Shown here in pieces: positions 1 to 37,331 of a DNA stretch of 64,000 nucleotides. The notes under the pieces were generated by a model. The model did not search any database and had not been told where the DNA came from. It saw only the letters and a program-made list of their open reading frames with translations. A program made the position numbers and the translations under genes. The stretch's first letter is position 1, and every line of letters starts with the position of its first letter. Source of the DNA: Patescibacteria group bacterium (lineage in GTDB: Bacteria; Patescibacteriota; Patescibacteriia; UBA1558; GWA2-36-10); contig JAHJQF010000001.1 of NCBI GenBank assembly GCA_018819405.1, forward strand, positions 665,676-729,675, given 5' to 3'.

Positions 1-2
1 AT

Positions 3-704
3 GAGACTGCCAACTGGCAGAAGGCCAGGGACATGGCGGCCATGCTCTCTGGTGGATGGCACCAGATTATCTCGGCCGGCAGTAATGGTATTGCCTCGGC
101 GGCGGCAGCTGGTGTGCGGCAGATTCATCAGGTGCCTGTGCCTGGTCAGTTTTCTCACCTCAGGGTGCTCACTGACATCGGGGACTCATCCAACTACTTC
201 CCCTCAGAATCCAACGAGAACGACTACTTCGGCAACCTGAGCAAACTGGTTATGTGTCCCGACATCTGGGTCTTCTTTCCTGGACAGGATGGTACGGCCC
301 AGCAGCTGACTTCTGTGCTGCATCTGTTGCGTAAGGGCGTATTGTCCTTGCACTACAAGTGGATTGTTATGATGGACTCGGAAAATCCTCTGATCAACTG
401 GGGTACTGCCTTTCTCAAGATGCGTGATTCCAAGATCAGCTGGATCGTGACCGATGACATTGGTCGCATTGAGGAGCTGATCGACGATATCGAGTTTCGG
501 GCGATGGATCTCATTGTCCGTGTCTGGCAGGACTCTCAGCTTGATGGTGTCATGACCAGCCGGGAGCTTCGGCAGCAGGTGATGATGGCCGATCCTCGGA
601 TGGGCTACGATCTCTGTGAACGGATGATCAACAAGGCCGCCAGTTACGGCGACATCAAGATCACCGACAAGAGACACGTCAAGTCGTGGCTCAGCATCAG
701 CTAG
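3..704 (+). CDS. Hypothetical protein in a GC-rich island. The reading frame is open to the window start, so the gene may be 5'-truncated.
   Basis: A 223-aa ORF (33..704) with its frame open back to nt 3. It ends immediately before a plus-strand hairpin followed by a T-run (705-770). The antisense ORF 204..677 is judged spurious. No family was recognised. Confidence 0.4.
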   Translation, partial: ETANWQKARDMAAMLSGGWHQIISAGSNGIASAAAAGVRQIHQVPVPGQFSHLRVLTDIGDSSNYFPSESNENDYFGNLSKLVMCPDIWVFFPGQDGTAQQLTSVLHLLRKGVLSLHYKWIVMMDSENPLINWGTAFLKMRDSKISWIVTDDIGRIEELIDDIEFRAMDLIVRVWQDSQLDGVMTSRELRQQVMMADPRMGYDLCERMINKAASYGDIKITDKRHVKSWLSIS

Positions 705-770
705 AGCCGCTGTGTCGGGGCCTCAACACACTACTGCGTGTGTCGGGGCCCTTTTTTATCTTGAGGACTT
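705..770 (+). terminator. Intrinsic terminator. Two copies of GTGTCGGGGCC form a GC stem followed by TTTTTT.
   Basis: The sequence reads gtgtcggggcctcaacacactactgcgtgtgtcggggcccttttttat. Confidence 0.5.
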
Positions 771-776
771 TGATTT

Positions 777-805
777 TTGACAAAAAATGTGATTTATTTT
801 AAGAT
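777..805 (+). promoter_or_regulatory. Sigma-70-like promoter, TTGACA-N17-TAAGAT, for the operon of three small genes.
   Basis: TTGACA lies at 777-782, a 17-nt spacer follows, and TAAGAT lies at 800-805. This is about 55 nt upstream of the SD-bearing start at 862. Confidence 0.4.
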
Positions 806-861
806 AGCAAGCTAATTGTTCCCTTTGTCATGAGTCCACAAATCCGACATGGAGGTGTAAA

Positions 862-1185
862 ATGGTGTCTTACAAAGTCAAGCTACAACACGGCAAAATT
901 ACAGCAGTTGAGTTCTGGGAAGAAGGGCTCAGAGCCAGGTTTTGCAAGATCATGATTGAGAAGCTCTCAGAAACACGCTATTACACTACTACCAACTGGC
1001 TTGGTCGTGGTCAGGGTGGTCTGAATGTGACCAAGAGCTTGGCCAAGGCCTTGGCTGGCTTGCCTGAGGACTTTCAGTCCAAGGTGGAGAGGGCTTTTCA
1101 GATGGAAAGCCTCACGCCAGCAGACATCTGGCATATCTTTCCTGGTGCTGAGGTGATTACCCCTATCAAAAAAGTAAGGAGCTAG
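862..1185 (+). CDS. Hypothetical small protein of 107 aa; first gene of a three-gene mini-operon in a GC-rich island.
   Basis: An SD of the form ggaggtgtaaaATGg precedes it. The next ORF starts 2 nt after its stop. No family was recognised. Confidence 0.4.
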   Translation: MVSYKVKLQHGKITAVEFWEEGLRARFCKIMIEKLSETRYYTTTNWLGRGQGGLNVTKSLAKALAGLPEDFQSKVERAFQMESLTPADIWHIFPGAEVITPIKKVRS

Positions 1186-1187
1186 TC

Positions 1188-1397
1188 ATGTCAGACATGG
1201 AGAAGCTAAAAGCCAAGATCATGGAGCTGGTCAGAGAAGGTGGTGTTAGCCATCGTTATACCCGCGATTTTCTAGTGGGACAGGTCGCTTGGCATGAACA
1301 TGTCAGCTACAAAGTGGCTGACGCGGCCTTTGGGCAGCTGGTCAGAGAAGGTGTCATCGCCTTTGGCGGTGAAGAAAGCATGGTTGTCATAGTCTAG
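1188..1397 (+). CDS. Hypothetical small protein, 69 aa.
   Basis: An SD of the form aaggagctagtcATG precedes it. It is tightly coupled to the flanking ORFs. Confidence 0.4.
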   Translation: MSDMEKLKAKIMELVREGGVSHRYTRDFLVGQVAWHEHVSYKVADAAFGQLVREGVIAFGGEESMVVIV

Positions 1398-1408
1398 GGA
1401 GGTCATGG

Positions 1409-1618
1409 ATGTACAGCACAGCTGAAGCGGCCAGACTCATCTTGCAACATATGCAGGAACAGTGTTTGCTCAAGTTTGAGCGTCGTGATCTGGTCATGTG
1501 GATGCGTACAGTTCACAGCAGTCAGTGTAACGACTGCATTTCTGAAGAAGCCATTGACATGTTGGCGGCCGAAGGTACTGTTGAATCGCTAGGTGATATC
1601 ATAGTATTGGAAAACTGA
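1409..1618 (+). CDS. Hypothetical small protein, 69 aa.
   Basis: An SD of the form gggaggtcatggATG precedes it. It is the last gene of the mini-operon, which is followed by a cluster of hairpins. Confidence 0.4.
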   Translation: MYSTAEAARLILQHMQEQCLLKFERRDLVMWMRTVHSSQCNDCISEEAIDMLAAEGTVESLGDIIVLEN

Positions 1619-1700
1619 AGCAGACTGATCTAAATAAAACAGGTGATCGTCAATTGTCATCTAGGCTAGAGCAGGCTGTATAGGCCTAGGAAGAAAAGCG

Positions 1701-6638: not shown

Positions 6639-7088
6639 ATGAAAGTAGTATTAATTGAAAATATAAATTCTCTGGGCAAGAAAGGGGATATAAAAGATGT
6701 GTCCGATGGTTATGCGGCCAATTTTTTGTTGCCACATGGCCTGGTAGTTTTGGCTACCAGTGAAAATATCGCCAAGTGGCAGGCTCAGGAAAAACAAATT
6801 CAGCAAAATACAGATTTGCGTCAGGAAAATTATGATAAGATTGCCAAGACTCTCAACAAACAAAGTTTGACTTTTGCGGGTAAAGTATCGGAAAAAGATA
6901 TATTATTTCAAGGGATATCACCCAAGGACATCGTCACAAGTATCAAGGAAAAATTTAATCTTGATATCAATGAAAAATGGTTTGTAAAATCAGAACATTT
7001 CAAAACGACAGGTAGGCATTCTGTTTTTTTGAGACTACCAAACAATAAATTAATTAGTTTTTTTATTAATATTAACCCCGTTAAATAA
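6639..7088 (+). CDS. rplI: 50S ribosomal protein L9.
   Basis: MKVVLIENINSLGKKGDIKDVSDGYAANFLLPHGLVVLAT matches the L9 N-domain. Length is 149 aa. Confidence 0.9.
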   Translation: MKVVLIENINSLGKKGDIKDVSDGYAANFLLPHGLVVLATSENIAKWQAQEKQIQQNTDLRQENYDKIAKTLNKQSLTFAGKVSEKDILFQGISPKDIVTSIKEKFNLDINEKWFVKSEHFKTTGRHSVFLRLPNNKLISFFININPVK

Positions 7089-7208
7089 TAAATAGCTATG
7101 GCTATTTATTAAATTTAATTTATATTTGTGATTAGAGAGAATATGATTTATAATTTTATATATTCAATTAATTATAATTTCCCGTTATTAAATTTATTTA
7201 ACGGGGTT
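7074..7208 (+). repeat. Long-range inverted repeat bridging the rplI stop codon and the pyrG start codon. It is a variant of the stop/start stem-loop family.
   Basis: AACCCCGTTAAATAA at 7074-7088 includes the rplI stop TAA. It is perfectly complementary to TTATTTAACGGGGTT at 7194-7208, which lies 17 nt before the pyrG ATG. The loop holds a nested CCCGTTA..TAACGGG mini-hairpin. Confidence 0.5.
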
Positions 7209-7225
7209 AACGCAGCATAGTCAAT

Positions 7226-8833
7226 ATGGCCAAAACAAAATACATTTTCATAACCGGCGGTGTTTGCTCAGGATTGGGTAAGGGGATTGCTTCTGCCTCA
7301 ATTGGGGCAATACTCAAGTCAGCCGGTTATTCTGTTTTTACCAGCAAGCTTGATCCTTATCTTAATATTGATCCGGGTACCATGAGTCCTTATCAGCATG
7401 GGGAAGTATTTGTGACAGACGATGGTACAGAGACTGATCTTGATTTGGGTCACTATGAGAGATTTATAGATACGTCTCTCTCCAAGCTTTCCAATCTGAC
7501 AACTGGTCGGGTCTATGAAAAAGTGTTGCAAGGTGAAAGAAGTGGTACTTATCTTGGCAAAACCATACAGATTGTGCCGCACATTACCAATGAAATAAAA
7601 GATTATATCAGAAGGGCCGCTACAGAATCCAAAGCTGATTTTTTGTTGACCGAAATTGGTGGTACAGTCGGAGACATTGAAGGTGAGCCTTTTTTGGAAG
7701 CTTTGCGTCAGTTTCACAATGAAATGGGTGATGAAAATGTCATGTTTGTGCATTTGACACTTTTGCCATATCTGACAGCTTCAATGGAACTCAAGACCAA
7801 ACCAACTCAAATGTCTGTCAGAGAATTACACCGTCGGGGTATTCAGCCGGATATTATATTAGCTAGAAGTGATCTCAAAATTGGTCAAGATGAACTGTAT
7901 AAAATTGCTATGTTTGCTGATATTGATCCCAAAGCGGTCATACCAGCGCTGACAGTCAGTAGCATCTATGAAGTACCGCTCAATTTTGAAAAACATGGTC
8001 ACATCTCTGATATAATTTTCAAAAAAATGAATTTGCCAAAGAGAAAACCAAAGCTAGACGATTGGGAGGCACTTATCAAGCGTATCAAAACTACCAAAAA
8101 GAAATTGCCTATTGCCCTGGTCGGCAAGTACAACGAAAATATAGATGCTTATATCAGTGTGATAGAAGCTATCAAATCAGCCTGTTATCACAATGGTGTC
8201 AAATTAGATTTGGTTTGGATTCATTCCGGTAAGTTGGAAAAAGGTGACAAAAAAGAATACGACAAACTCAAAAAAGTAAAAGGTATTATTGTACCAGGTG
8301 GTTTTGGTCATCGTGGAGTAGAAGGCAAAATTATGGCTGCTAAATATGCCCGTGAAAACAAAAAACCCTATCTTGGTCTTTGTCTTGGTATGCAGGTAGC
8401 TACTATTGAATTTGCTCGCCATGTCTTGGGCACCAAAGATGCTAATAGTACTGAGTTTGACAAAAATACCAAAAATCCAGTTATACACATATTGCCAGGG
8501 CACACTGAAGACGAAGACAAAGGTGGCACCCTGAGACTCGGTGCTTATCCTTGTGTCTTGGATAAAGATTCGCTGAGCTACAAAGCTTATGGGGAGACTA
8601 AGATTTCCGAGCGTCATCGCCATCGTTATGAATTCAACAATGATTATCTAGAAGTACTGGAAAAAGCTGGTATGAGATTTGCTGGTATGAGTCCAGATGG
8701 CAAGCTGGTAGAAATCATAGAATACAAAGACCATCCATATTTTGTGGCATCTCAATTTCATCCGGAATTTAAATCCCGACCACTAAGACCACATCCACTA
8801 TTTCGAGATTTTATTAAAGCAGCTGTAAAATAA
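7226..8833 (+). CDS. pyrG: CTP synthase.
   Basis: The N-terminus KYIFITGGVCSGLGKGIASASIGAILK and the motif DPYLNIDPGTMSPYQHGEVFVTDDG match CTP synthase. The glutamine amidotransferase motif GLCLGMQ is present. Confidence 0.95.
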   Translation: MAKTKYIFITGGVCSGLGKGIASASIGAILKSAGYSVFTSKLDPYLNIDPGTMSPYQHGEVFVTDDGTETDLDLGHYERFIDTSLSKLSNLTTGRVYEKVLQGERSGTYLGKTIQIVPHITNEIKDYIRRAATESKADFLLTEIGGTVGDIEGEPFLEALRQFHNEMGDENVMFVHLTLLPYLTASMELKTKPTQMSVRELHRRGIQPDIILARSDLKIGQDELYKIAMFADIDPKAVIPALTVSSIYEVPLNFEKHGHISDIIFKKMNLPKRKPKLDDWEALIKRIKTTKKKLPIALVGKYNENIDAYISVIEAIKSACYHNGVKLDLVWIHSGKLEKGDKKEYDKLKKVKGIIVPGGFGHRGVEGKIMAAKYARENKKPYLGLCLGMQVATIEFARHVLGTKDANSTEFDKNTKNPVIHILPGHTEDEDKGGTLRLGAYPCVLDKDSLSYKAYGETKISERHRHRYEFNNDYLEVLEKAGMRFAGMSPDGKLVEIIEYKDHPYFVASQFHPEFKSRPLRPHPLFRDFIKAAVK

Positions 8834-8839
8834 ATTTAA

Positions 8840-8880
8840 AAACAACCCTGCACCATCACGGTGCAGGGTCGTTTTTATTT
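8840..8880 (+). terminator. Intrinsic terminator of pyrG.
   Basis: The hairpin ccctgcaccatcacggtgcaggg is followed by tcgtttttatttt. Confidence 0.6.
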
Positions 8881-8976
8881 TGGATAAAAATTGACAAAAG
8901 AAAACGGGTCGGGAATCGTGTGATTCCCGACCCGCAAGCGGACGTTTAGTCCATGAGTGTGGTCACATCATGTGGT

Positions 8977-9597
8977 TTATCTCATTATAAACCACATGAC
9001 AGTGACTATTGCCCAAGTGATGACATTGCCTAGCTCGCCAATAAATAGTCCTTTGGTACTCCTATCCCAACCTCCTTGGTGGGCGTTTATCCAGACTTGT
9101 AAAAATCTGGGGAAAGAAGTGATGTGACTGGCTATCAGAGAAACAGTGGGTAGACCTTCGGAACTACCGGCTTGGTAGATGACATAGGCCATCCATAGTT
9201 GAGGGATGCCTTTGCACCACATCGACAAAAAACCTTTGGCAACATCATCTTTATAACTGCCAAATTTGTAGATGGTTGTCATAGATAGTCCAGAGACTAA
9301 TATGACAACTATTGTGTCTCCGTGTTGCCAGCGAATAGATCGTATTCCGATGATAAACAATCAGGTAAAAATGGCGATAAATTGAATAAAAATACTGATG
9401 ATTCGGCGCCGATCTACCGTGGGATTGTTACGGTAGGAAGACACAGACAGAACTAGGCTAAAACACAGGTAGGCGACAAATAGCAGCCACAAGGCTAGGG
9501 TCAGCCCTTTTGTATGACCACTAAAGACCTGTATAGTCTGAAACAGAGCATAGGTCCAAGCCGCAATGACTTGGATCCAAAAGAGGATTCTAGTCAT
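8977..9597 (-). pseudogene. Small polytopic membrane protein (PQ-loop/SemiSWEET-like?) split by an in-frame TGA at 9361-9363. Either a pseudogene or a read-through gene.
   Basis: The 78-aa ORF (9361..9597) and the 127-aa ORF (8977..9360, TTG start) are contiguous and in frame, separated only by TGA. Together they give about 205 aa with multiple hydrophobic helices and a PQ dipeptide (KGIPQLWMAY). An SD (agaaaggccaaagtcATG) and a dedicated promoter lie upstream, and a hairpin plus T-run terminator lies downstream. Confidence 0.4.
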
Positions 9598-9646
9598 GAC
9601 TTTGGCCTTTCTCTTTGAGTTGGTAATGAAACAAAACGGACTAGCG

Positions 9647-9675
9647 ACTATATCATATTTTGTCTATTTTGTCAA
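9647..9675 (-). promoter_or_regulatory. Consensus sigma-70 promoter, TTGACA-N17-TATAGT, reading leftward into the membrane-protein gene.
   Basis: The reverse complement is TTGACA AAATAGACAAAATATGA TATAGT. The first 19 nt (TTGACAAAATAGACAAAAT) are duplicated at 10497-10515. Confidence 0.55.
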
Positions 9676-9764
9676 TGATAAATAATATAAAAAGAAAAAC
9701 CGTCTTGTATGAACAAGATGGTTTTTCTTGTTCACAACGACGGTTGGTGAGAGATCTACTTGGG

Positions 9765-10007
9765 TTAGCTCTCGGGAGTTTCCGACATGAGCTGGTCTTT
9801 GTTGTCCAGCAGTCGCTGGCGGACGATCAGAGCTTGCTCGCTCAAGTCTTCCAAGTAGTTGGCCAGCATCTCGACCGTGCAACTCGGACCAATGACACTC
9901 CGAACATCTCGGAGTATCCTCATGATATGGACCAGGTTGATGGAGGTGGAGAGTTCTTCGTTGGTTCCGACCTGTCGGAGCAGTTCGTAAGTGTGAATTA
10001 CTTTCAT
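9765..10007 (-). CDS. Hypothetical 80-aa protein, GC-rich. It has its own promoter, SD and terminator.
   Basis: It has a strong SD (aaggagatcactATG) and a promoter TTGACA-N17-TATAAA at 10059-10087 (minus strand). The terminator hairpin aaaaaccgtcttgtatgaacaagatggtttttc lies at 9697-9729. The overlapping plus-strand ORF 9660..10223 is judged spurious. Confidence 0.55.
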   Translation of the reverse strand: MKVIHTYELLRQVGTNEELSTSINLVHIMRILRDVRSVIGPSCTVEMLANYLEDLSEQALIVRQRLLDNKDQLMSETPES

Positions 10008-10139
10008 AGTGATCTCCTTGGTGGGTGTTTGTGGGTGGGAGGGAACTTTGTATATCTTTTTATATATTATTTAATACTTTTTGTCAATGAAAAAACCGCC
10101 TCACAAGAAGAACGGTTTTTCCCGTTGTTTGAGGGCGGT

Positions 10140-10434
10140 GTTTATTTGCCGAAGATTTCAGCGATATTTCGGCTGATTTCATCACCGGTCAGGGGACATA
10201 GCTCCTTGATGTTGATGGTATAGCCTTCTTGGTTGGTGGTCAGACCTTTTTCCAGGTAGTACCCCCAGCGTACTTGATGCATTTACGGTAGCCTTCGGGC
10301 GCTTGGTTGTGGCAACTACTGGAAATAATGATGCGTAGATTCCGATCAAGTAGCCAGGTGGCTGAAGGCGCCAAATCGCGCTGGTTGATTGTACGGCCAC
10401 ACTGTTTGGTGCAGCCACAGTTGTAGGTGTCCAC
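10140..10434 (-). pseudogene. Cys-rich small protein gene (about 97 aa) disrupted by a 1-nt frameshift in a C5/G5 homopolymer at 10261-10265.
   Basis: A GTG start with an upstream aggaaag SD gives MDTYNCGCTKQCGRT..SSSCHNQAPEGYRKCIKYAGG. The +1 frame then continues YYLEKGLTTNQEGYTINIKELCPLTGDEISRNIAEIFGK and stops with TAA directly before a terminator hairpin at 10089-10122. One extra G in the run would restore a single ORF. Confidence 0.45.
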
Positions 10435-10488
10435 GTCTTTCCTTTCCGGTGATTTGGTGTGGTGGTTGGTACATAAATAATTATTATT

Positions 10489-10515
10489 TCTATAACATTT
10501 TGTCTATTTTGTCAA
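10489..10515 (-). promoter_or_regulatory. Promoter module for the Cys-rich gene. It duplicates the -35 box and spacer of the promoter at 9647-9675.
   Basis: The reverse complement is TTGACAAAATAGACAAAAT GT TATAGA. It shares an identical 19-mer with the other promoter, but here the spacer is 15 nt. Confidence 0.45.
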
Positions 10516-10618
10516 TATAATAGTAAGCTGAGTTGATTTTTTTTCTTATAAATGGGAAAATATTAGAAGTATTAGTGTTGCTAAAATAGGAGATTTCTTA
10601 AAAAATCAGTTTTTCTTT

Positions 10619-11815
10619 ATGCTAAAAAAAATAGTTGTTACAGTTTTGATAATAATATTTTCCTTGGCCGCTTATTTTGGCGGTCAAGCACTTTATTGGT
10701 ATATCAAAAGTGCTCCAGAGCGCGCTTTGGGAAAAGCTCAGGCTCAGGCTGTAGAGGATTTGCTTGTTTTACGTCGGAAAGAGCAGTTGACTAATAGTCA
10801 GGATAATCCTTTTAATGATAATGGCCGAGTTAGTATTCTTTTTATTGGTTTGGACAAGCGAGCAAGCGATGACAATTCTGGACATTGTGATGCTATCCAG
10901 CTGATAGAAATTGATAAAAATATTAATCAAGTGATGATAACAGCTGTGCCAAGGGGTACTTATTCGCCTCTGCCACTGGGCAAGGGCGCGACCTCATCTG
11001 ATTATTATATTTCTAATGCCTGTGATCTGGGTGGTTTGGAATATGGTATCAAACAAATTGAAAAAGTATTGGGCAAAAAGGCTGATTATCTGGCTATAGT
11101 TGGTTTTTCTCAAACTCTAGGTATTTTGCGTAATTTGCAATTGCCGGCAGTGGATACTTTGCGTTGGCTACGCCATCGTCAGAGTTATGCAGTTGGTGAG
11201 CCTCAAAGAGCCCATAATCATTCCACTTTTATCAAGCAAATGGCTCTCAAATATCTAAGTAACGATATTTCTAAAATAGATTTGGCTTGGCAGTATTTAC
11301 TTTACAAAAAAGTGCAGACTGATTTGAGTTTTGACCAAGTAAAAATAATAGTGCGGGCGCTCTCAGAAATGGGCTTGGCGCAAAATCCAGACAATATCAA
11401 ACTTGCTATGCAGCCACCTTATGTAGTAGATGATATTAGCTATGATCCGGAAAATCTAGGCGCTTATCTGGATTCAAGACTGGAGCCAATAAAGCATTTA
11501 TTGTCAGTGGCTGACTATCAAGGACTGGATCAGGAGACGGTGCAGCAAAAATTGCTAGCTAGTATTACAGACCAAAAAGATAATCCCGAGTTTGTCACTT
11601 GGGCTTATCAAAATTATCTTTGGCAGCAAATAGATGATGAAGATTTGCGCTATCAGAATCAATACGATTTACTAGTAGCTTATTTAGATACGATGGAGGA
11701 GGCTAGTGAGCGCCAGGCAGTAATTGGTGATTATATTTTGGAAATGGAATATTATGGAGAAGATTTTTGGGTTCAGGCTGGTCATGAGCTTTTACTCTAT
11801 GAATTGGGTTATTAA
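10619..11815 (+). CDS. LytR-CpsA-Psr (LCP) family cell-envelope phosphotransferase/attenuator.
   Basis: An N-terminal transmembrane segment is followed by VSILFIGLDKRASDDNSGHCDAIQLIEIDKNINQVMITAVPRGTY..CDLGGLEYGIKQIEKVLGKKADYLAIVGFSQTLGILRNL, which matches the LCP domain pattern. Confidence 0.75.
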   Translation: MLKKIVVTVLIIIFSLAAYFGGQALYWYIKSAPERALGKAQAQAVEDLLVLRRKEQLTNSQDNPFNDNGRVSILFIGLDKRASDDNSGHCDAIQLIEIDKNINQVMITAVPRGTYSPLPLGKGATSSDYYISNACDLGGLEYGIKQIEKVLGKKADYLAIVGFSQTLGILRNLQLPAVDTLRWLRHRQSYAVGEPQRAHNHSTFIKQMALKYLSNDISKIDLAWQYLLYKKVQTDLSFDQVKIIVRALSEMGLAQNPDNIKLAMQPPYVVDDISYDPENLGAYLDSRLEPIKHLLSVADYQGLDQETVQQKLLASITDQKDNPEFVTWAYQNYLWQQIDDEDLRYQNQYDLLVAYLDTMEEASERQAVIGDYILEMEYYGEDFWVQAGHELLLYELGY

Positions 11816-13192: not shown

Positions 13193-13300
13193 GAAAATCT
13201 AGCCAAGGTGGCTAGGTTAAAGCAACTCTTTTTTTGAAAGGAGGATTTTGTCAGAAGACAGTGCCGCTTTAAACCCTCCACCCCACCTGGAGAGAAAACC

Positions 13301-13609
13301 ATGAAGAAAGTGTTGTACATCGTCATTTTCGCGCTGTTTTCATATTCGCTGGCCTTGGCCGGCGATCCCATCGATGGCAACGACGAGCCGATGAGGTCTG
13401 CTACGACCACGTCTGTGGCCGGCGATCCCATCGATGGCAACGATCATCCGATGAGGTCTGCTACGACCATGTCTGTGGCCGGCGATCCCATCGACGGCAA
13501 CGATCATCCGATGAGGTCTGCTACGACCACGTCTGTGGCCGGCGAACCCATCGACGGAAACGACGGACCGGTATATCTGTGGCAGGTGATTTTCTACCTG
13601 CTGTTCTAG
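13301..13609 (+). CDS. Secreted repeat peptide. A signal peptide is followed by 3.5 copies of a 20-aa unit (A)GDPIDGNDHPMRSATTTSVA and a hydrophobic C-tail VYLWQVIFYLLF.
   Basis: An SD (ggagagaaaaccATG) precedes it. The cleavage site looks like SLALA|G. The repeats are perfect in-frame 60-nt copies, and a terminator hairpin (ggggcacctattagctagtaggtgccc) plus a T-run follows. The locus is GC-rich and the antisense ORF is judged spurious. Confidence 0.6.
   Translation: MKKVLYIVIFALFSYSLALAGDPIDGNDEPMRSATTTSVAGDPIDGNDHPMRSATTMSVAGDPIDGNDHPMRSATTTSVAGEPIDGNDGPVYLWQVIFYLLF
13358..13570 (+). repeat. Tandem direct repeat: three complete 60-nt units (13358-13417, 13418-13477, 13478-13537) and a partial fourth copy.
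   Basis: The unit is gccggcgatcccatcgatggcaacgatcatccgatgaggtctgctacgaccacgtctgtg, with 2-4 substitutions per copy. Confidence 0.9.
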
Positions 13610-13710
13610 AGCCGGCATCAATCCAACCGGGGCACCTATTAGCTAGTAGGTGCCCTGTTTTTTATTATAAACTATAGCTACTATTGTGTTATATTGTTTA
13701 TTTTTGCAAA

Positions 13711-13759: not shown

Positions 13760-13833
13760 TCGGGGATCGTCTAATGGTAGGACAACGGGTTTTGGTCCCG
13801 TCAATCGGGGTTCGACTCCCTGTCCCCGAGCCA
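13760..13833 (+). tRNA. tRNA-Gln (anticodon UUG), with CCA encoded.
   Basis: The cloverleaf was folded by hand. The acceptor stem is tcgggga/tccccga with the U1-A72 pair characteristic of bacterial tRNA-Gln. The D-stem is gtct/ggac. The anticodon stem is acggg/cccgt with loop ttTTGgt. The T-arm is cgggg-ttcgact-ccctg. The discriminator is G and CCA follows. Confidence 0.9.
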
Positions 13834-13961
13834 AACGAACAAGGTGAGTGTAGGCTCGGGTTAAAAAAATCCGAGTCGAAGACGAGGTTCCTAAGATGCT
13901 GTGCAATAGCACAGCGCCCCGAGCCAAACGAACAAGGTGAGTGTAGGCTCGAGTTAAAAAA
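13834..13961 (+). other. Conserved tRNA-Gln 3' trailer module of 93 nt ending in a copy of the tRNA 3' end (GCCCCGAGCCA), followed by a 35-nt partial tandem repeat of its own 5' part. A hairpin terminator follows at 13962-13992.
   Basis: The module 13834-13926 is about 89% identical to 57353-57445, downstream of the second tRNA-Gln. It contains the hairpins cccgagcc..ggctcggg and gctgtgcaatagcacagc. The segment aacgaacaaggtgagtgtaggctcg(g/a)gttaaaaaa occurs twice, at 13827-13866 and 13927-13961. Confidence 0.5.
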
Positions 13962-14271: not shown

Positions 14272-14427
14272 TGAATAAAGATTTTTTTAGGAAAATAAAT
14301 TACAGAGCTCTTGGGCTCTGTTTTTTGTTCCTATTATATTGACATAATAAGTTATTTATATTATAGTTAAATGTTAATTTAGGCACTTTGAAAAGTGAGT
14401 GTTTTCAAAACAGAGGGAGGCAGTAAA

Positions 14428-15609
14428 ATGCGCGCTAGCACAAAGAAAAGTCAGTTTGTCGCCTTGTTTGTTGTTTTTTTGGTCATGGCCATTGGTTTTG
14501 GCTCTGGCTTTGGAAGCGATGAACAGGTGATGGAAATTTGGCACTGGCAAGAGGATTGGCGTCTGGGCGGAGAAGACGAGAGTTTTATCTTCGCCTCAAT
14601 TAGCAAGGTGCTTTTGGGTCATGACAACAATTTGTACATCTTGGATGGCAGAAGTTCCAAGATTTATGTTGTTGCTGTTGCCGATGGCAAGCACCAAAGA
14701 ACCATCAGCATTTCTGGCGAAGGGCCAGGTGAGCTCAGTTTTTCCGGCAATATGTTTTTGATGGGTGATGAGCACATTGGTCTTTTGCGGACCACTCCGG
14801 CCAAAATCGTCTATATTGATTACCAAGGGAAACCTGGGCCAAGCATTTACTTGAATGAGAATCCTTCTGGCATGTTTCTCTCTACCTTTGCCAAATGGCA
14901 AAATGGTATATTGGTTATTGCCGGAAGCAATTCTATTCCCGGAGAAACTTGGCTCGGCCAATACGTTGAGTATGGTGAGAAGTTTCGTTATGTCAACTAT
15001 CCTTTGCGTTCCTTGTTTCTTGAACAAAAGTTAGTGGAAGAGGATACCTATTTTTACTCTTACAAACCTTGGGATCTTGATAAAGATGGCAATCTTTATC
15101 TTGCTCCTTATTGGGGTGATAAGAGTAAAAATGAATATCACTTCAATGTATATGACACGCAGGGGAAAAAGCTACGAGAGATCAGTCATGAATTTGAGCC
15201 ATACGAGCGTTCAAATGAGGAGAAACGCTTGGCAAAGGCTTCACTTGTGGGCGGTGTCGAGGACTTGAAGATGATGGAGAGCTTGGGCGGTGAATGTGTA
15301 GTTGAAGATATTGCGCCAAATATCTTTGACATTACCATTCACTCTGATGGTAGGATTTGGGTGGAAACCAGTCGTAGCGCAAAGAATCAGCCCGAGGGCA
15401 TATTCAAAACCTACGACATTTTCCTGCCAAGTGGCGAGTTTTCCCATCGGGTAGCGCTAGCTTTGCCGGCCAACGGAGAAAAAGACATAGTTTACTTTAT
15501 TTCTGACGACCAGCTCATTGTGGTCAAAGGCCAAAAAGATATATTGAGTTTTGGCGCGTATCCGGATGCCGATGTTTTGGAAATTATTTGCTACTCTCTA
15601 TCAAGGTGA
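14428..15609 (+). CDS. Secreted hypothetical protein (about 393 aa) with a signal peptide; possibly a beta-propeller fold.
   Basis: The SD gagggaggcagtaaaATG places the start at 14428; the track ORF begins earlier, at 14395. The N-terminus is MRASTKKSQFVALFVVFLVMAIGFGSG. GC content is moderate. No family was recognised. Confidence 0.5.
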   Translation: MRASTKKSQFVALFVVFLVMAIGFGSGFGSDEQVMEIWHWQEDWRLGGEDESFIFASISKVLLGHDNNLYILDGRSSKIYVVAVADGKHQRTISISGEGPGELSFSGNMFLMGDEHIGLLRTTPAKIVYIDYQGKPGPSIYLNENPSGMFLSTFAKWQNGILVIAGSNSIPGETWLGQYVEYGEKFRYVNYPLRSLFLEQKLVEEDTYFYSYKPWDLDKDGNLYLAPYWGDKSKNEYHFNVYDTQGKKLREISHEFEPYERSNEEKRLAKASLVGGVEDLKMMESLGGECVVEDIAPNIFDITIHSDGRIWVETSRSAKNQPEGIFKTYDIFLPSGEFSHRVALALPANGEKDIVYFISDDQLIVVKGQKDILSFGAYPDADVLEIICYSLSR

Positions 15610-15734
15610 TAGAGAAAGGAGGTCAAGAGAGGTCAATAAGTATATTGGCCTCTCATTTTTTTTGATCAAAAAAAGAGGACTCGTTTGTAACAGTGACGAG
15701 TCCCCGGAAGAAGTGTCTGGCGCCGAGTTGGTGT

Positions 15735-16058
15735 TTAGGCGCGCAGATGATAGGTGGTCACGGTGTCGCCGGCGTCGTCGACCTCGATAATAGTCGTTTC
15801 TTCGACGTTCTCCGCGGGACCTTGCACGAAGTCCCATTCCCATTCCTGGCCCTCCAGCTGCATGTAGGCCAGACACATCGCGTTCCAGCCCCAGGACTCC
15901 CAGTTGTGCTCCTCGGCTGCTGTGCAAGCGACCGGAAGCAAATCCTGCTCCTGGGTCTCCGAGGAGACAACAGCGGCCTCACTGGTCTGAGGCATGATCA
16001 TGATGATGACACCGATCGCCAAGAAGGCGATGAGTGCCATCGTGGTGAGCTTCTTCAT
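15735..16058 (-). CDS. Small secreted Trp/Glu-rich hypothetical protein (107 aa, signal peptide), GC-rich.
   Basis: The sequence is MKKLTTMALIAFLAIGVIIMIMPQTSEAAV.. with an upstream SD (gggaagagaggaagagATG). Bidirectional hairpins lie downstream at 15625-15735. The overlapping ORFs 15601..15927, 15693..16124 and 15758..15982 are judged spurious. Confidence 0.45.
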   Translation of the reverse strand: MKKLTTMALIAFLAIGVIIMIMPQTSEAAVVSSETQEQDLLPVACTAAEEHNWESWGWNAMCLAYMQLEGQEWEWDFVQGPAENVEETTIIEVDDAGDTVTTYHLRA

Positions 16059-16145
16059 CTCTTCCTCTCTTCCCTTTGGGGTTGGCGGTTACTTGGAATT
16101 TACTATAAGTCTCCTTTGTTCTAGAGTGACGGCCACAATGTAATC

Positions 16146-16805
16146 CTAGGGTGTTTTTGCGGCCAGTGTACCAACGATTCCTATTCTAGTTGGGTCTATG
16201 TCCAAGCCAATGAGTTGGTATTGGCTGTACTTTTTGGGTAAACGGACATAAACAGCATTGGGCCGTTTATTGTAATCCGGTTTATTGTTGAATTGCCGGT
16301 TGAAGACAATAGTGCTTTGCCTTGAATCGTATGGCTTGCCCACATTGCCTTCATAGTAAACAGCTAGACAACCAAGGTCATCGGTTTCCACAATAGAGCT
16401 GTCTGGCGTCAAAAATCGGAAGTGAAAGGCTTTTTGAGAGATATTGATGTCTACTCCATCTTTGATGAAAAATCCTAGGACATAGAAAGCAAAATTTTGC
16501 TTTCTGATTTCCCGTCCCATCATGATTTCCAAGGGGCGGGTCCTTGGTAACGTAGCATCAAACTGTGCGAGCACATCGCTAGGTGCGTTCATACCACGCA
16601 GAGTTTCTTTTTTGTCTGCCATCTGGCTTTCAAACTTGGCGATGTTGAACCAACCGCCCTTGACGATTTTGAAGGAGCTGGTGCTGACCAGCTCATTGTG
16701 GTGGGACTTGGTGGTTGCCTGTGTTTGAATTTGTTGATTGGTCACAGCACAGGCCGAGACCAAAAACACACTTGCCAGCAGGATGATATGTAGAAGGCGT
16801 TTCAT
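16146..16805 (-). CDS. Putative lipoprotein of unknown function.
   Basis: The SD aagaggagctaaaATG precedes it. The signal peptide ends in a lipobox (LVSAC). A promoter-like TTGACA lies upstream at about 16905, minus strand. GC content is moderate. Confidence 0.6.
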   Translation of the reverse strand: MKRLLHIILLASVFLVSACAVTNQQIQTQATTKSHHNELVSTSSFKIVKGGWFNIAKFESQMADKKETLRGMNAPSDVLAQFDATLPRTRPLEIMMGREIRKQNFAFYVLGFFIKDGVDINISQKAFHFRFLTPDSSIVETDDLGCLAVYYEGNVGKPYDSRQSTIVFNRQFNNKPDYNKRPNAVYVRLPKKYSQYQLIGLDIDPTRIGIVGTLAAKTP

Positions 16806-16924
16806 TTTAGCTCCTCTTAGGTCCCAAAAAGAACCTTTTGCTTCAGGGTTAGAGAGTTATTTCAAAGGACCATTCACTTATATCTTTATCATTTTCTTTG
16901 TTTTTTGTCAATATTTAAAAAAAG

Positions 16925-16975
16925 GGGGACTCGCCGTAGCCGGGGGGAATTGGCTACAAATGGCGAGTCCCTGTG
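16925..16975 (-). terminator. Intrinsic terminator on the minus strand, downstream of the response-regulator gene.
   Basis: The stem is gggactcgcc..ggcgagtccc. On the minus strand it is followed by cccttttttt. Confidence 0.5.
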
Positions 16976-17161
16976 CTACCCTCTAGAGGCAGCATTATTA
17001 GCAGTTAAGTATTGACTAACTGCGCAGAGGATAAATGAACATTTTTTCTGGTGGGCTACTTCCTGAGCCACCAGAACAGATAAATGAGCGCCAGACTCAT
17101 CTCATAATGCATGCCGCATTTCCTTTCGTGTGTCTGGGGTTATTTTTCCCCTAGCCAACAA

Positions 17162-17576
17162 TCAGCAGGAAACGGCCAGGAAAGTTTCAATGTACTCCAC
17201 AAAGTGCAGGACATTGAAGGGCTTGGGGAAAAAATGCGCTCCGTAGAGCTTCAACAGGTGTTCGATTTTCTTGGTCTTTTTGTGGCCGACGAGGATCACC
17301 GAACAATTTTTGCCCAGCTCCATGTCGTAGATAAGACCGCAGAGCCAGTTTCCGTCGATACGCTCGGCTTCGGCGATGACCACGTCCGGGAAAGGTCGTG
17401 TCTGGATCAACAACCCGATGACATCGACTGCACTGGTGACCAACTTGGCTTGTTTGTCCTGATTGGACCAGACGATGTTGGCGAGTACTTCATGACCAGC
17501 ACCACTGGTTTCCAGAGCGTGACGAAGGGTCTTGATGGTGTCGGCGTTGTCGTCGTAGATGAAAATGCGAGACATG
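17162..17576 (-). CDS. Single-domain CheY-like response-regulator receiver protein, possibly atypical at the phospho-acceptor position.
   Basis: The SD ataggaggtcccaacATG gives MSRIFIYDDNADTIKTLRHALE..PDVVIAEAERIDGNWL..KPF. The acidic pocket DD and the conserved Lys (KPF) are present. By alignment, the usual phospho-acceptor Asp appears to be Glu (VIAEAE). The track ORF 17162..17659 begins further upstream. Confidence 0.55.
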
Positions 17577-17655
17577 TTGGGACCTCCTATGTTCTGATTT
17601 GGCAAAACAAAAAAACGTCCCAACAATGAGACATTTTGTGTACGCCAAACCAGCG

Positions 17656-17889
17656 TCAATGCCGGTTGCGCTACTGACTCCCCATTGCCCTTGTCTCGAC
17701 ACTAAGTCGGACTAAGCGCCCAATTAATAGGCAACGGTTCTTCGTCTCATTGATTTTATAGAATCCTTTCTGTTTTGAAAGAGCTTGATTTATCAAAAAA
17801 ACACCTTTTTGAGGCGTTCCGACAAATCAAGCATCTGTTGCTTTGTTAATGTCGGTTACGCTACTAGCTCCCGACTGCCCTTAGCCTCG
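17656..17889. repeat. Two imperfect 43-nt direct repeats (17656-17698 and 17847-17889) flanking a 12-bp-stem hairpin (gcttgatttatc..gacaaatcaagc). They lie in the roughly 400-nt leader of the response-regulator gene.
   Basis: caatgccggttgcgctactgactccccattgcccttgtctcg and taatgtcggttacgctactagctcccgactgcccttagcctcg match at about 33 of 43 positions. A minus-strand promoter TTGACA-N17-TACTAT lies at 17987-18015. Confidence 0.4.
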
Positions 17890-18064: not shown

Positions 18065-18153
18065 TGAATCCCGTTAGAAATTTACAAACTTTTGATGGGA
18101 TAAAATATTTAAAGTGTTTTAATAATTTTACTTAAATTTCTAACGGGATGAAA
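18065..18153 (+). repeat. Stop/start-bridging inverted-repeat element, copy A. The 5' arm is TGAATCCCGTTAGAAATTT. A 42-nt loop is followed by the 3' arm AAATTTCTAACGGG ATG AAA.
   Basis: The stem is 16 bp and perfect. The 3' arm ends in the start codon at 18148. An extended -10 element (TGgTATATT, about 18050-18060) puts the likely transcription start at the 5' arm. Confidence 0.75.
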
Positions 18154-21579: not shown

Positions 21580-22146
21580 ATGAAAAAAGTAATTGCTGAA
21601 ATTTCCGCTAGACATATTCATATTTCCAGAGCCCATTTGGACAAGCTTTTTGGTAAAGGCTACCAATTAAAATCAATCAAAGAATTGTCACAGCCTGGTG
21701 AATTTGGGGCCGAAGAAAGAGTAGAGGTAATTGGTCCAAAAAATAGTATAATGATGCGTATAGTTGGTCCGATAAGAGATAAGACTCAGATTGAGCTGGC
21801 CGCTACTGATGCCAGAACTCTAGGAATTAGACCTGAATTTAGAGTATCTGGTGATCTCAAAGGCACGCCAGGTGGTGTGACACTCAAAGGGCCAAAAGGC
21901 TCAGTCAAATTGCTAACTGGCGTGATAGTGCCACTTAGACATCTGCATATATCAACTGAAGAAGCCAAAAAATGGCAATTAAAAACCGGCCAAAAAGTAA
22001 AAGCCAAAGTAGGTGGTCCCCGCGGATTGATACTGGAAAATATCGTAGTCCGAGTTGGCAACTTTAGTACTAGTATTCATCTGGATACCGACGAAGGCAA
22101 CGCCGCCGGATTACTGAGTTGTAGCAAAATAGACTTGATTTTATGA
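21580..22146 (+). CDS. PduL-like phosphate acyltransferase (phosphotransacylase).
   Basis: Two PduL-type motifs are present: SARHIHISRAHLDKLFG and PLRHLHISTEEAKKW. Length is 188 aa. It sits directly upstream of acetate kinase. Confidence 0.7.
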   Translation: MKKVIAEISARHIHISRAHLDKLFGKGYQLKSIKELSQPGEFGAEERVEVIGPKNSIMMRIVGPIRDKTQIELAATDARTLGIRPEFRVSGDLKGTPGGVTLKGPKGSVKLLTGVIVPLRHLHISTEEAKKWQLKTGQKVKAKVGGPRGLILENIVVRVGNFSTSIHLDTDEGNAAGLLSCSKIDLIL

Positions 22147-22224
22147 ACCCAGTTAGAAATTCACAAAATTATATTTTACTAATGGGGAAAAATTATTTAA
22201 TAATTAATTTCTAACGGGGTGAAA
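22144..22224 (+). repeat. Stop/start-bridging inverted-repeat element, copy B. The 5' arm TGAACCCAGTTAGAAATTC contains the pduL stop TGA; the 3' arm AATTTCTAACGGG GTG AAA contains the ackA GTG start.
   Basis: The stem is 14 bp with one mismatch and the loop is 42 nt. The loop holds a 10-codon mini-ORF (ATGGGGAAAAATTATTTAATAATTAATTTCTAA) that ends at the TAA inside the 3' arm. Confidence 0.75.
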
Positions 22225-37231: not shown

Positions 37232-37331
37232 TGAATCCCGTTAGAAATTCACGGGATATTGTGTATAAATAAAGATAGTGTAGTATATATTTCTTGTATG
37301 TTTTATGAAGTAAATTTCTAACGGGATGAAA
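37232..37331 (+). repeat. Stop/start-bridging inverted-repeat element, copy C. The 5' arm TGAATCCCGTTAGAAATTC lies 1 nt after the mreB-paralog stop TAA. The 3' arm AAATTTCTAACGGG ATG AAA contains the glycosyltransferase start.
   Basis: The stem is 15 bp and the loop is 61 nt. The loop contains a TGtagTATATAT extended -10-like motif and a 7-codon mini-ORF (ATGTTTTATGAAGTAAATTTCTAA) that ends at the arm TAA. Confidence 0.75.

Follow-up and report, generated by a model that had tools for sequence, protein, structure and literature searches.

Three short genes on the minus strand, two of them with interrupted reading frames, lie within a 64,000-nucleotide stretch of a Patescibacteria group bacterium genome (hereafter the window), and they raise the question of whether the interruptions reflect recoding, error or decay. 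The locus is best read as a case of ordinary gene gain and decay and not of recoding. It is probably a laterally acquired accessory island of three self-sufficient genes, of which unit 1 is stopped by a nonsense codon, unit 2 is intact and unit 3 is broken in its frame.

The three monocistronic units occupy window positions 8894-10515, each with a promoter, a purine-rich ribosome-binding site and a hairpin/T-run terminator (Table 1), between pyrG (7226-8833) on one side and an LCP-like gene (10619-11815) on the other. A first-pass annotation had described them as three independent transcription units, and a TTGACA start and a terminator were found for each. The surrounding backbone has about 35% GC and long table-11 open reading frames (ORFs), almost all on the plus strand, and the closest relatives of its pyrG come from Parcubacteria- and Komeilibacteria-like MAGs. 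The housekeeping genes flanking the island are untouched. NCBI annotates the island as three hypothetical proteins of 101, 80 and 46 amino acids (aa), an annotation that splits the two broken genes.

Table 1. Features of the three-unit island, in window coordinates. Terminator z-scores compare the fold with those of shuffled sequences.
Feature	Position	Strand	Details
Unit 3 promoter	10487..10515	minus	TTGACA 10510-10515; includes the 19-mer at 10497-10515
Unit 3 candidate -10	10487-10492 or 10489-10494	minus	TAGAAA (10487-10492, 17-nt spacer) or TATAGA (10489-10494, 15-nt spacer)
Unit 3 ORF A	10240..10434	minus	GTG start, Cys-rich, 64 codons to TGA
Unit 3 ORF B, KKH39_03470	10142..10282	minus	46 codons; frame favoured downstream of the G-run
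Unit 3 intrinsic terminator	10089..10139	minus	nested hairpin 10095-10139, T-run 10089-10094; z = -3.25
Unit 2 promoter	10059..10087	minus	TTGACA 10087-10082, 17-nt spacer, TATAAA
Unit 2 gene, KKH39_03465	9765..10007	minus	80 aa, helical, AAGGAG Shine-Dalgarno
Unit 2 intrinsic terminator	9690..9745	minus	hairpin 9698-9745, then T-run; z = -5.47
Unit 1 promoter	9647..9675	minus	TTGACA 9675-9670, 17-nt spacer, TATAGT, TG extended -10; includes the 19-mer at 9657-9675
Unit 1, seven-TM membrane protein gene, predicted PQ-loop/KDEL-receptor fold	8977..9597	minus	206 codons, TGA-interrupted
Unit 1 intrinsic terminator	8894..8935	minus	14-bp stem 8904-8935, then T-run; z = -7.16

Both interruptions survive a second assembler. 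The Logan assembly of SRR6514730 (L001), which may have been built from the very reads that underlie the deposited genome, is 100% identical to the window over positions 8701-10800 (2100 bases) and contains both lesions, making the homopolymer sequencing error envisaged in the first-pass annotation unlikely. More broadly, sequencing or assembly error could account for one lesion or both, or they could be minority alleles, with plain, intact genes in the actual genome. Both lesions involve one base only (G to A in unit 1, a missing G in the homopolymer of unit 3), conservation of unit 1 is perfect apart from its lesion, and the consensus of a metagenome-derived genome may hide a mixed population. 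We give this explanation a slim chance, as the Logan identity extends across both lesion sites, a substitution error in a consensus is unlikely, and, for a homopolymer error in short-read data, five G make a short run.

The expression signals suggest that each unit would be translated from its purine-rich ribosome-binding site and insulated by its own intrinsic terminator. A hairpin with a T-run is present at the end of all three units, in agreement with the first reading of the locus, and an Rfam scan of the region gave only sub-threshold matches, mostly on these terminator hairpins. The accompanying claim of a strong Shine-Dalgarno (SD) sequence in each unit held for unit 2, whose AAGGAG pairs with the anti-SD at -8.3 kcal/mol and is the sole strong SD among the three, but not for unit 3 (GGAAAGGAAAG, GAAAGG-type, -5.9 kcal/mol) or unit 1 (GAAAGG, -3.5 kcal/mol), both of which are weaker.

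Upstream, each unit would be read leftward from a strong sigma-70-type promoter of the clade consensus. The arrangement TTGACA-N17-TATAxx had been proposed for every unit; it is found in units 1 and 2, whereas unit 3 has TAGAAA at N17 and offers TATAGA only at N15. One promoter pair does share an identical 19-mer, with exact copies of TTGACAAAATAGACAAAAT at 9657-9675 (unit 1) and 10497-10515 (unit 3). Allowing up to three mismatches, 0.16 chance matches are expected, and three or more matches occurred in 0 of 100 shuffles. This genome's RNase P RNA gene has TTGACAAAAATAGTAAAATTTGGTATATA in its promoter, similar promoters stand upstream of unrelated genes in CPR loci (L005, L082, L086 and L088), and alignment of the clade promoters gives the consensus aTTGACAAAATAGnTAAAATATGnTATAAt. 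The pattern TTGACAAA-N15-TAnnn[TA] has a density of 12.1 per 100 kb in CPR loci and of 0.55 per 100 kb in the remaining loci fetched. The 19-mer is one instance of this clade-wide promoter consensus. Such a consensus explains the identity of the two copies, so the promoter duplication that had been read from the shared 19-mer is not required, although a local duplication may nonetheless have occurred.

The contrast with an AT-rich backbone that lacks SD sequences, drawn in the first-pass annotation, is borne out by composition. GC3 is 0.22-0.36 in backbone genes and 0.44-0.68 in units 1-3, with other GC-rich genes in the window reaching 0.79. The anti-SD pairing energy has a median of +0.4 kcal/mol in backbone genes (n = 47; -6 or lower in 4 of 47) as against -7.4 kcal/mol in island genes (n = 11; -6 or lower in 7 of 11). 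One genome thus holds two expression styles, an SD-less backbone and GC-rich accessory genes with their own promoter, ribosome-binding site and terminator. Eight relatives with pyrG 83-90% identical share the L9-pyrG segment but have neither the island nor the downstream LCP gene. GC3, SD use and this absence support the lateral origin that had been suggested for the three-unit island. L005 and L006 likewise carry GC-rich genes (GC3 up to 0.9) immediately downstream of pyrG, and L004 has a GC-rich stretch about 4 kb beyond it, which argues that foreign DNA has entered this position repeatedly within the clade. In the scenario we propose, a small foreign island would have settled downstream of pyrG, at a variable site of a Patescibacteria chromosome that is AT-rich and largely free of SD sequences. 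Searches for marks of mobility found no integrase, flanking repeats or nearby tRNA gene, and no phage link emerged: the three products gave no usable match in Pfam, NCBIfam or PHROGs and no phage-family match, and viral-contig scans returned no relatives of unit 1 or unit 2.

Read through its TGA, unit 1 encodes a protein of 206 aa. Among 5.8 billion proteins searched we found 14 homologs (196-223 aa, 43-64% identity), nearly all with full query coverage, which establishes that the family is real and that the TGA interrupts a normally continuous gene. Each homolog is a single gene in a small CPR-like genome, with its own TTGACA promoter and AAAGGAG SD. The family has so far been seen only in small CPR-like genomes. 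An exact look-up of the unit 1 N-terminal ORF in a contig index found none, and a PnuC-like protein of the L005 island, considered as a possible relative, proved unrelated by profile comparison.

Structure modelling of P0002 from the family alignment gave a confident prediction of seven helices (pLDDT 92, pTM 0.85) in a 3+1+3 layout, that is, two three-helix bundles and a linker helix, as in the PQ-loop/SWEET fold. In the PQ-loop/SWEET/KDEL-receptor superfamily (PF04193, PF03083 MtN3_slv, KDEL receptor, cystinosin; MtN3-like clan) a Pro-Gln motif marks the first helix of each repeat (TM1 and TM5). On this motif the family gives a mixed picture: P132 is invariant in helix 5 and is followed by Q133 in at least 90% of sequences, and most members have Pro-Gln in helix 1 as well, where FQ or MQ stands in the window copy and its nearest relatives, P0001-P0004. 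No Pfam or NCBIfam model, PF04193 and PF03083 included, reaches threshold for the family. PF04193 (PQ-loop) matches 2 of the 14 homologs, weakly (best E-value 3.5e-4), and the window protein has no Pfam match at E <= 1. No PDB sequence was matched in a profile search with the family, and identity to solved structures is 7-12%. The label "PQ-loop-like" given at first therefore stands at the level of fold, through the seven-helix model, but not as membership of a curated sequence family.

By this model, unit 1 has the seven-helix KDEL-receptor/cystinosin/SWEET (PQ-loop) fold, from which we infer that it would transport a small solute, by import or export. Seven-helix SWEETs have already been reported in bacteria (PMC5742349). 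The island leaves current understanding unchanged, and its useful by-product is the fold of this CPR family: membrane proteins that had no family name, from bacteria that are uncultured and metabolically dependent, now have a fold-level assignment, and transporters are central to the life of such cells.

The in-frame TGA that joins the two halves of unit 1 lies at 9361-9363, as first described. It is codon 79 and falls within the third transmembrane helix (TM3; model residues 61-84). In the corresponding alignment column the three closest homologs have Trp and the remaining ones A, F, L, V, G, I or T, which identifies the lesion as a TGG-to-TGA change. A single G-to-A transition has thus turned a Trp codon of helix 3 into a stop, and the normal product of unit 1 would be a truncated 78-aa fragment. 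Of the alignment columns that at least 85% of homologs conserve, the window copy keeps 23 of 23 before the stop and 38 of 39 after it; since conserved residues are equally intact on both sides, the lesion is either recent or leaky.

Selenocysteine-like or other programmed recoding at the TGA had been raised as an explanation. Within the window, TGA ends 9 of the 59 listed ORFs: seven ordinary genes of normal length and the two lesion-shortened ORFs of units 1 and 3. Among the ordinary genes there are GT4 glycosyltransferases that cover their Pfam domains in full, and ATGA overlaps with a following gene. A SECIS-like hairpin, suggested as a feature to look for 3' of the TGA, is absent from the 91 nt surrounding and following the unit 1 TGA (fold z = -1.47 against shuffles). 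Because TGA is an ordinary stop elsewhere in the window and there is no such hairpin, selenocysteine and genome-wide reassignment are excluded. Bacterial selenoprotein genes have an in-frame UGA in common with unit 1, but the homologs of unit 1 never have Cys or Sec at this position, the 3' sequence forms no significant hairpin, and the site lies in a membrane helix. Genomes using code 4 (UGA = Trp) or code 25 (UGA = Gly) are AT-rich and reduced, as here, and the UGA of unit 1 occupies a Trp position; the users of code 25 (Gracilibacteria/Absconditabacteria) belong to the same superphylum as this genome. Unlike in those genomes, UGA here ends normal genes, and a scan of the 64 kb for ORFs joined by an in-frame TGA recovered only unit 1 and no other split gene. 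The window contains two tRNA genes, both for tRNA-Gln, and none of the ten backbone proteins scanned is the prfB product.

UGA is the leakiest stop codon, being misread as Trp, and it has been reassigned repeatedly in AT-rich reduced genomes. Unit 1 could accordingly still be functional, with UGA read as Trp by near-cognate tRNA-Trp, or with re-initiation at the TTG codon that directly follows the TGA, at a reduced level of transporter; in that case the stop would be leaky, or would mark the beginning of a move to UGA = Trp. The position of the TGA at the Trp codon of the closest homologs, the conserved residues kept beyond it and the intact promoter, ribosome-binding site and terminator all suit this explanation. 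We nevertheless consider it unlikely. The same codon is the normal stop of seven genes in the window and occurs in frame nowhere else in it, and the base that follows the unit 1 stop is U. Work in E. coli indicates that the UGAU context favours efficient termination. A stop in the middle of helix 3 also means that the two fragments produced by re-initiation would not be natural domains, and the second lesion, in adjacent unit 3, suggests relaxed selection on the island. That the UGA marks a tolerated UGA-to-Trp read-through in a Parcubacteria-like genome still using UGA as a stop is highly improbable; if true, it would represent the ambiguous-decoding stage proposed to precede codon reassignment. 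With the neighbouring unit also broken, we favour the view that unit 1 is a very young pseudogene, with rare read-through at best.

In unit 3, the first-pass annotation had located a frame break at a run of five G at 10261-10265. The run of five is present, one base further along, at 10262-10266, and one added G fuses ORFs A and B into a single ORF of 97 codons (10142-10434) that ends, as had been claimed, at a TAA just before the terminator. We scored the frames by log-likelihood per codon, with ten GC-rich window genes as the source of codon frequencies. Frame A scores best upstream of the run (+0.24, against -0.15 and -0.54) and the shifted frame downstream of it (+0.69, against -0.42 and -0.75), so the frame does break at the run, and the coding frame of ORF A is supported only up to that point. 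The switch is what a one-base deletion would leave in an ORF that used to be single, and two overlapping ORFs would also give it. As unit 3 has no homolog, it is codon statistics that speak for single-ORF ancestry, and a GAAGG placed 9 nt before the ATG of ORF B makes two overlapping ORFs possible.

That unit 3 was never broken, being either a pair of short genes that overlap (64 aa and 46 aa) or a non-coding transcript some 390 nt long, would be in keeping with this GAAGG and with the NCBI annotation, which includes the 46-aa ORF B on its own and not ORF A. The repaired 97-aa product has no homolog among 5.8 billion proteins, in phage records (chance matches only) or in metagenome contigs, and the transcript folds somewhat better than shuffles (z = -2.71). 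The terminator hairpin contributes part of that z-score, however, the transcript matches no Rfam family, and codon usage looks coding first in frame A and afterwards in frame B, changing over exactly at the G-run, so we hold this alternative to be quite doubtful. Most likely, unit 3 is a second young pseudogene, a Cys-rich orphan whose reading frame would have been broken at the five-G run.

Two candidate relatives of unit 3 were rejected. A single metagenome match (L087) lies antisense inside a 445-aa gene and is spurious. Two small Cys-rich proteins with a C-terminal HTH, p108 in L088 and p109 in L005, are homologous to each other (E = 8e-10) and are driven by a nearly identical promoter, and in L088 the unit 2 homolog has p108 immediately upstream. 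An HMM of the two proteins scores unit 3 no higher than shuffles or other window ORFs, so homology of unit 3 to them is not supported.

As in ordinary bacterial pseudogenes of acquired DNA, the lesions here are single-base changes in two genes of foreign composition, with the expression signals intact. Unit 1 differs from such pseudogenes in showing no further decay, so its lesion would be very recent or tolerated.

Unit 2 is an intact cytosolic helical protein kept by selection. A HMMER search of 1.84 billion representatives returned unit 2 itself and one true homolog (P0016, 66% identity over the matched stretch), encoded on a 3.1-kb Logan contig (L088) of a related organism, where an LCP gene fragment has 76% DNA identity to the LCP gene of the window. 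Two giant repetitive proteins (P0017 and P0018) were set aside, their matches being driven by a short repeated motif, and an exact look-up of unit 2 in the contig index found none. Compared with the L088 homolog, unit 2 has a dN/dS of 0.19 over 68 aligned codons, with dS near saturation, which indicates that the minus-strand frame is a protein under purifying selection and that the 80-aa product named in the first reading belongs to a real gene. For this reason a plus-strand ORF of 187 aa at 9660-10223 (a 182-aa gene according to one gene caller), which runs antisense to unit 2, is treated as spurious. The predicted structure of unit 2 is helical, with a pLDDT of 88.

We found that one promoter consensus, aTTGACAAAATAGnTAAAATATGnTATAAt, is common across the clade, with the spacer conserved as well, and that it is enriched 22-fold compared to loci from other phyla. 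In several Patescibacteria genomes this type of promoter precedes the RNase P RNA and many accessory genes led by Shine-Dalgarno (SD) sites, which it is predicted to drive. Related genomes (loci L088 and L005) contain further GC-rich cassettes that carry this promoter type; among their products are small Cys-rich plus HTH proteins, a PnuC-like membrane protein and an M20-type peptidase. The small Cys-rich plus HTH proteins of the two loci, p108 in L088 and p109 in L005, are homologous (E = 8e-10). The presence of these GC-rich cassettes with a shared promoter type in related genomes suggests that the clade draws on a common pool of accessory cassettes.

Coordinates of the features discussed (own numbering for L loci, which come from other Patescibacteria genomes; GC3, third-codon-position GC)
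Feature	Sequence	Position	Detail
Promoter-consensus sites	window	38426-38454
	L005	14072-14100
	L082	8064 and 11987
	L088	1182
GC-rich cassettes	L088	1182-2520
	L005	11900-15500
Additional GC-rich islands	window	1-1700, 13300-13610, 14395-17760	SD-led genes, GC3 0.47-0.79
Tandem repeats in island gene	window	13356-13563	three of 60 nt; 102-aa secreted protein
Receiver-like protein gene, island	window	17162-17659	minus strand
c-di-GMP-II riboswitch	window	17651-17758	receiver-like protein gene placed behind it
tRNA-Gln(UUG)	window	13760-13833
Direct repeat	window	13824-13868 and 13917-13961	45 nt, 98% identical
Backbone intergenic regions bracketed by inverted repeat (n=4)	window	18066-18150, 22145-22221, 37234-37328, 42911-42985
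Separate palindrome	window	7072-7088 / 7194-7210
17-nt stretch, two copies	window	9072-9088 and 10014-10030	16/17 bases identical

Nearly all SD-led genes of the additional GC-rich islands lack a Pfam family; a beta-propeller protein is also encoded among them. The direct repeat begins within the 3' end of tRNA-Gln(UUG) and may represent a copy of the tRNA 3' end such as an integration event would leave behind.

An inverted repeat brackets four intergenic regions of the AT-rich backbone. Its left arm, (A)TGAAYCCNGTTAGAAATT, sits on top of the upstream stop codon at three of the four, the 18066 copy lying in a gene-free stretch, and the last bases of its right arm, AATTTCTAACGGG(A/G)TG, form the start codon of the gene that follows. 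The hairpins predicted here, at -16 to -26 kcal/mol, would sequester that start codon. A mini-ORF, MNPVRN..., can be read in the left arm, and its copies vary synonymously. The motif matched 11 times compared to 2.3 expected, and was not found in the fetched related loci. A possible role for the repeat, in a genome that lacks SD sites, is translational coupling or RNA processing. We also observed a separate palindrome that is unlike this repeat.

Finally, a 17-nt stretch, AAAC(G/A)CCCACCAAGGAG on the minus strand, occurs twice: within the coding sequence of unit 1, the PQ-loop-fold membrane protein gene, and upstream of the 80-aa protein gene of unit 2, where it forms the leader and SD; this match may be due to chance.
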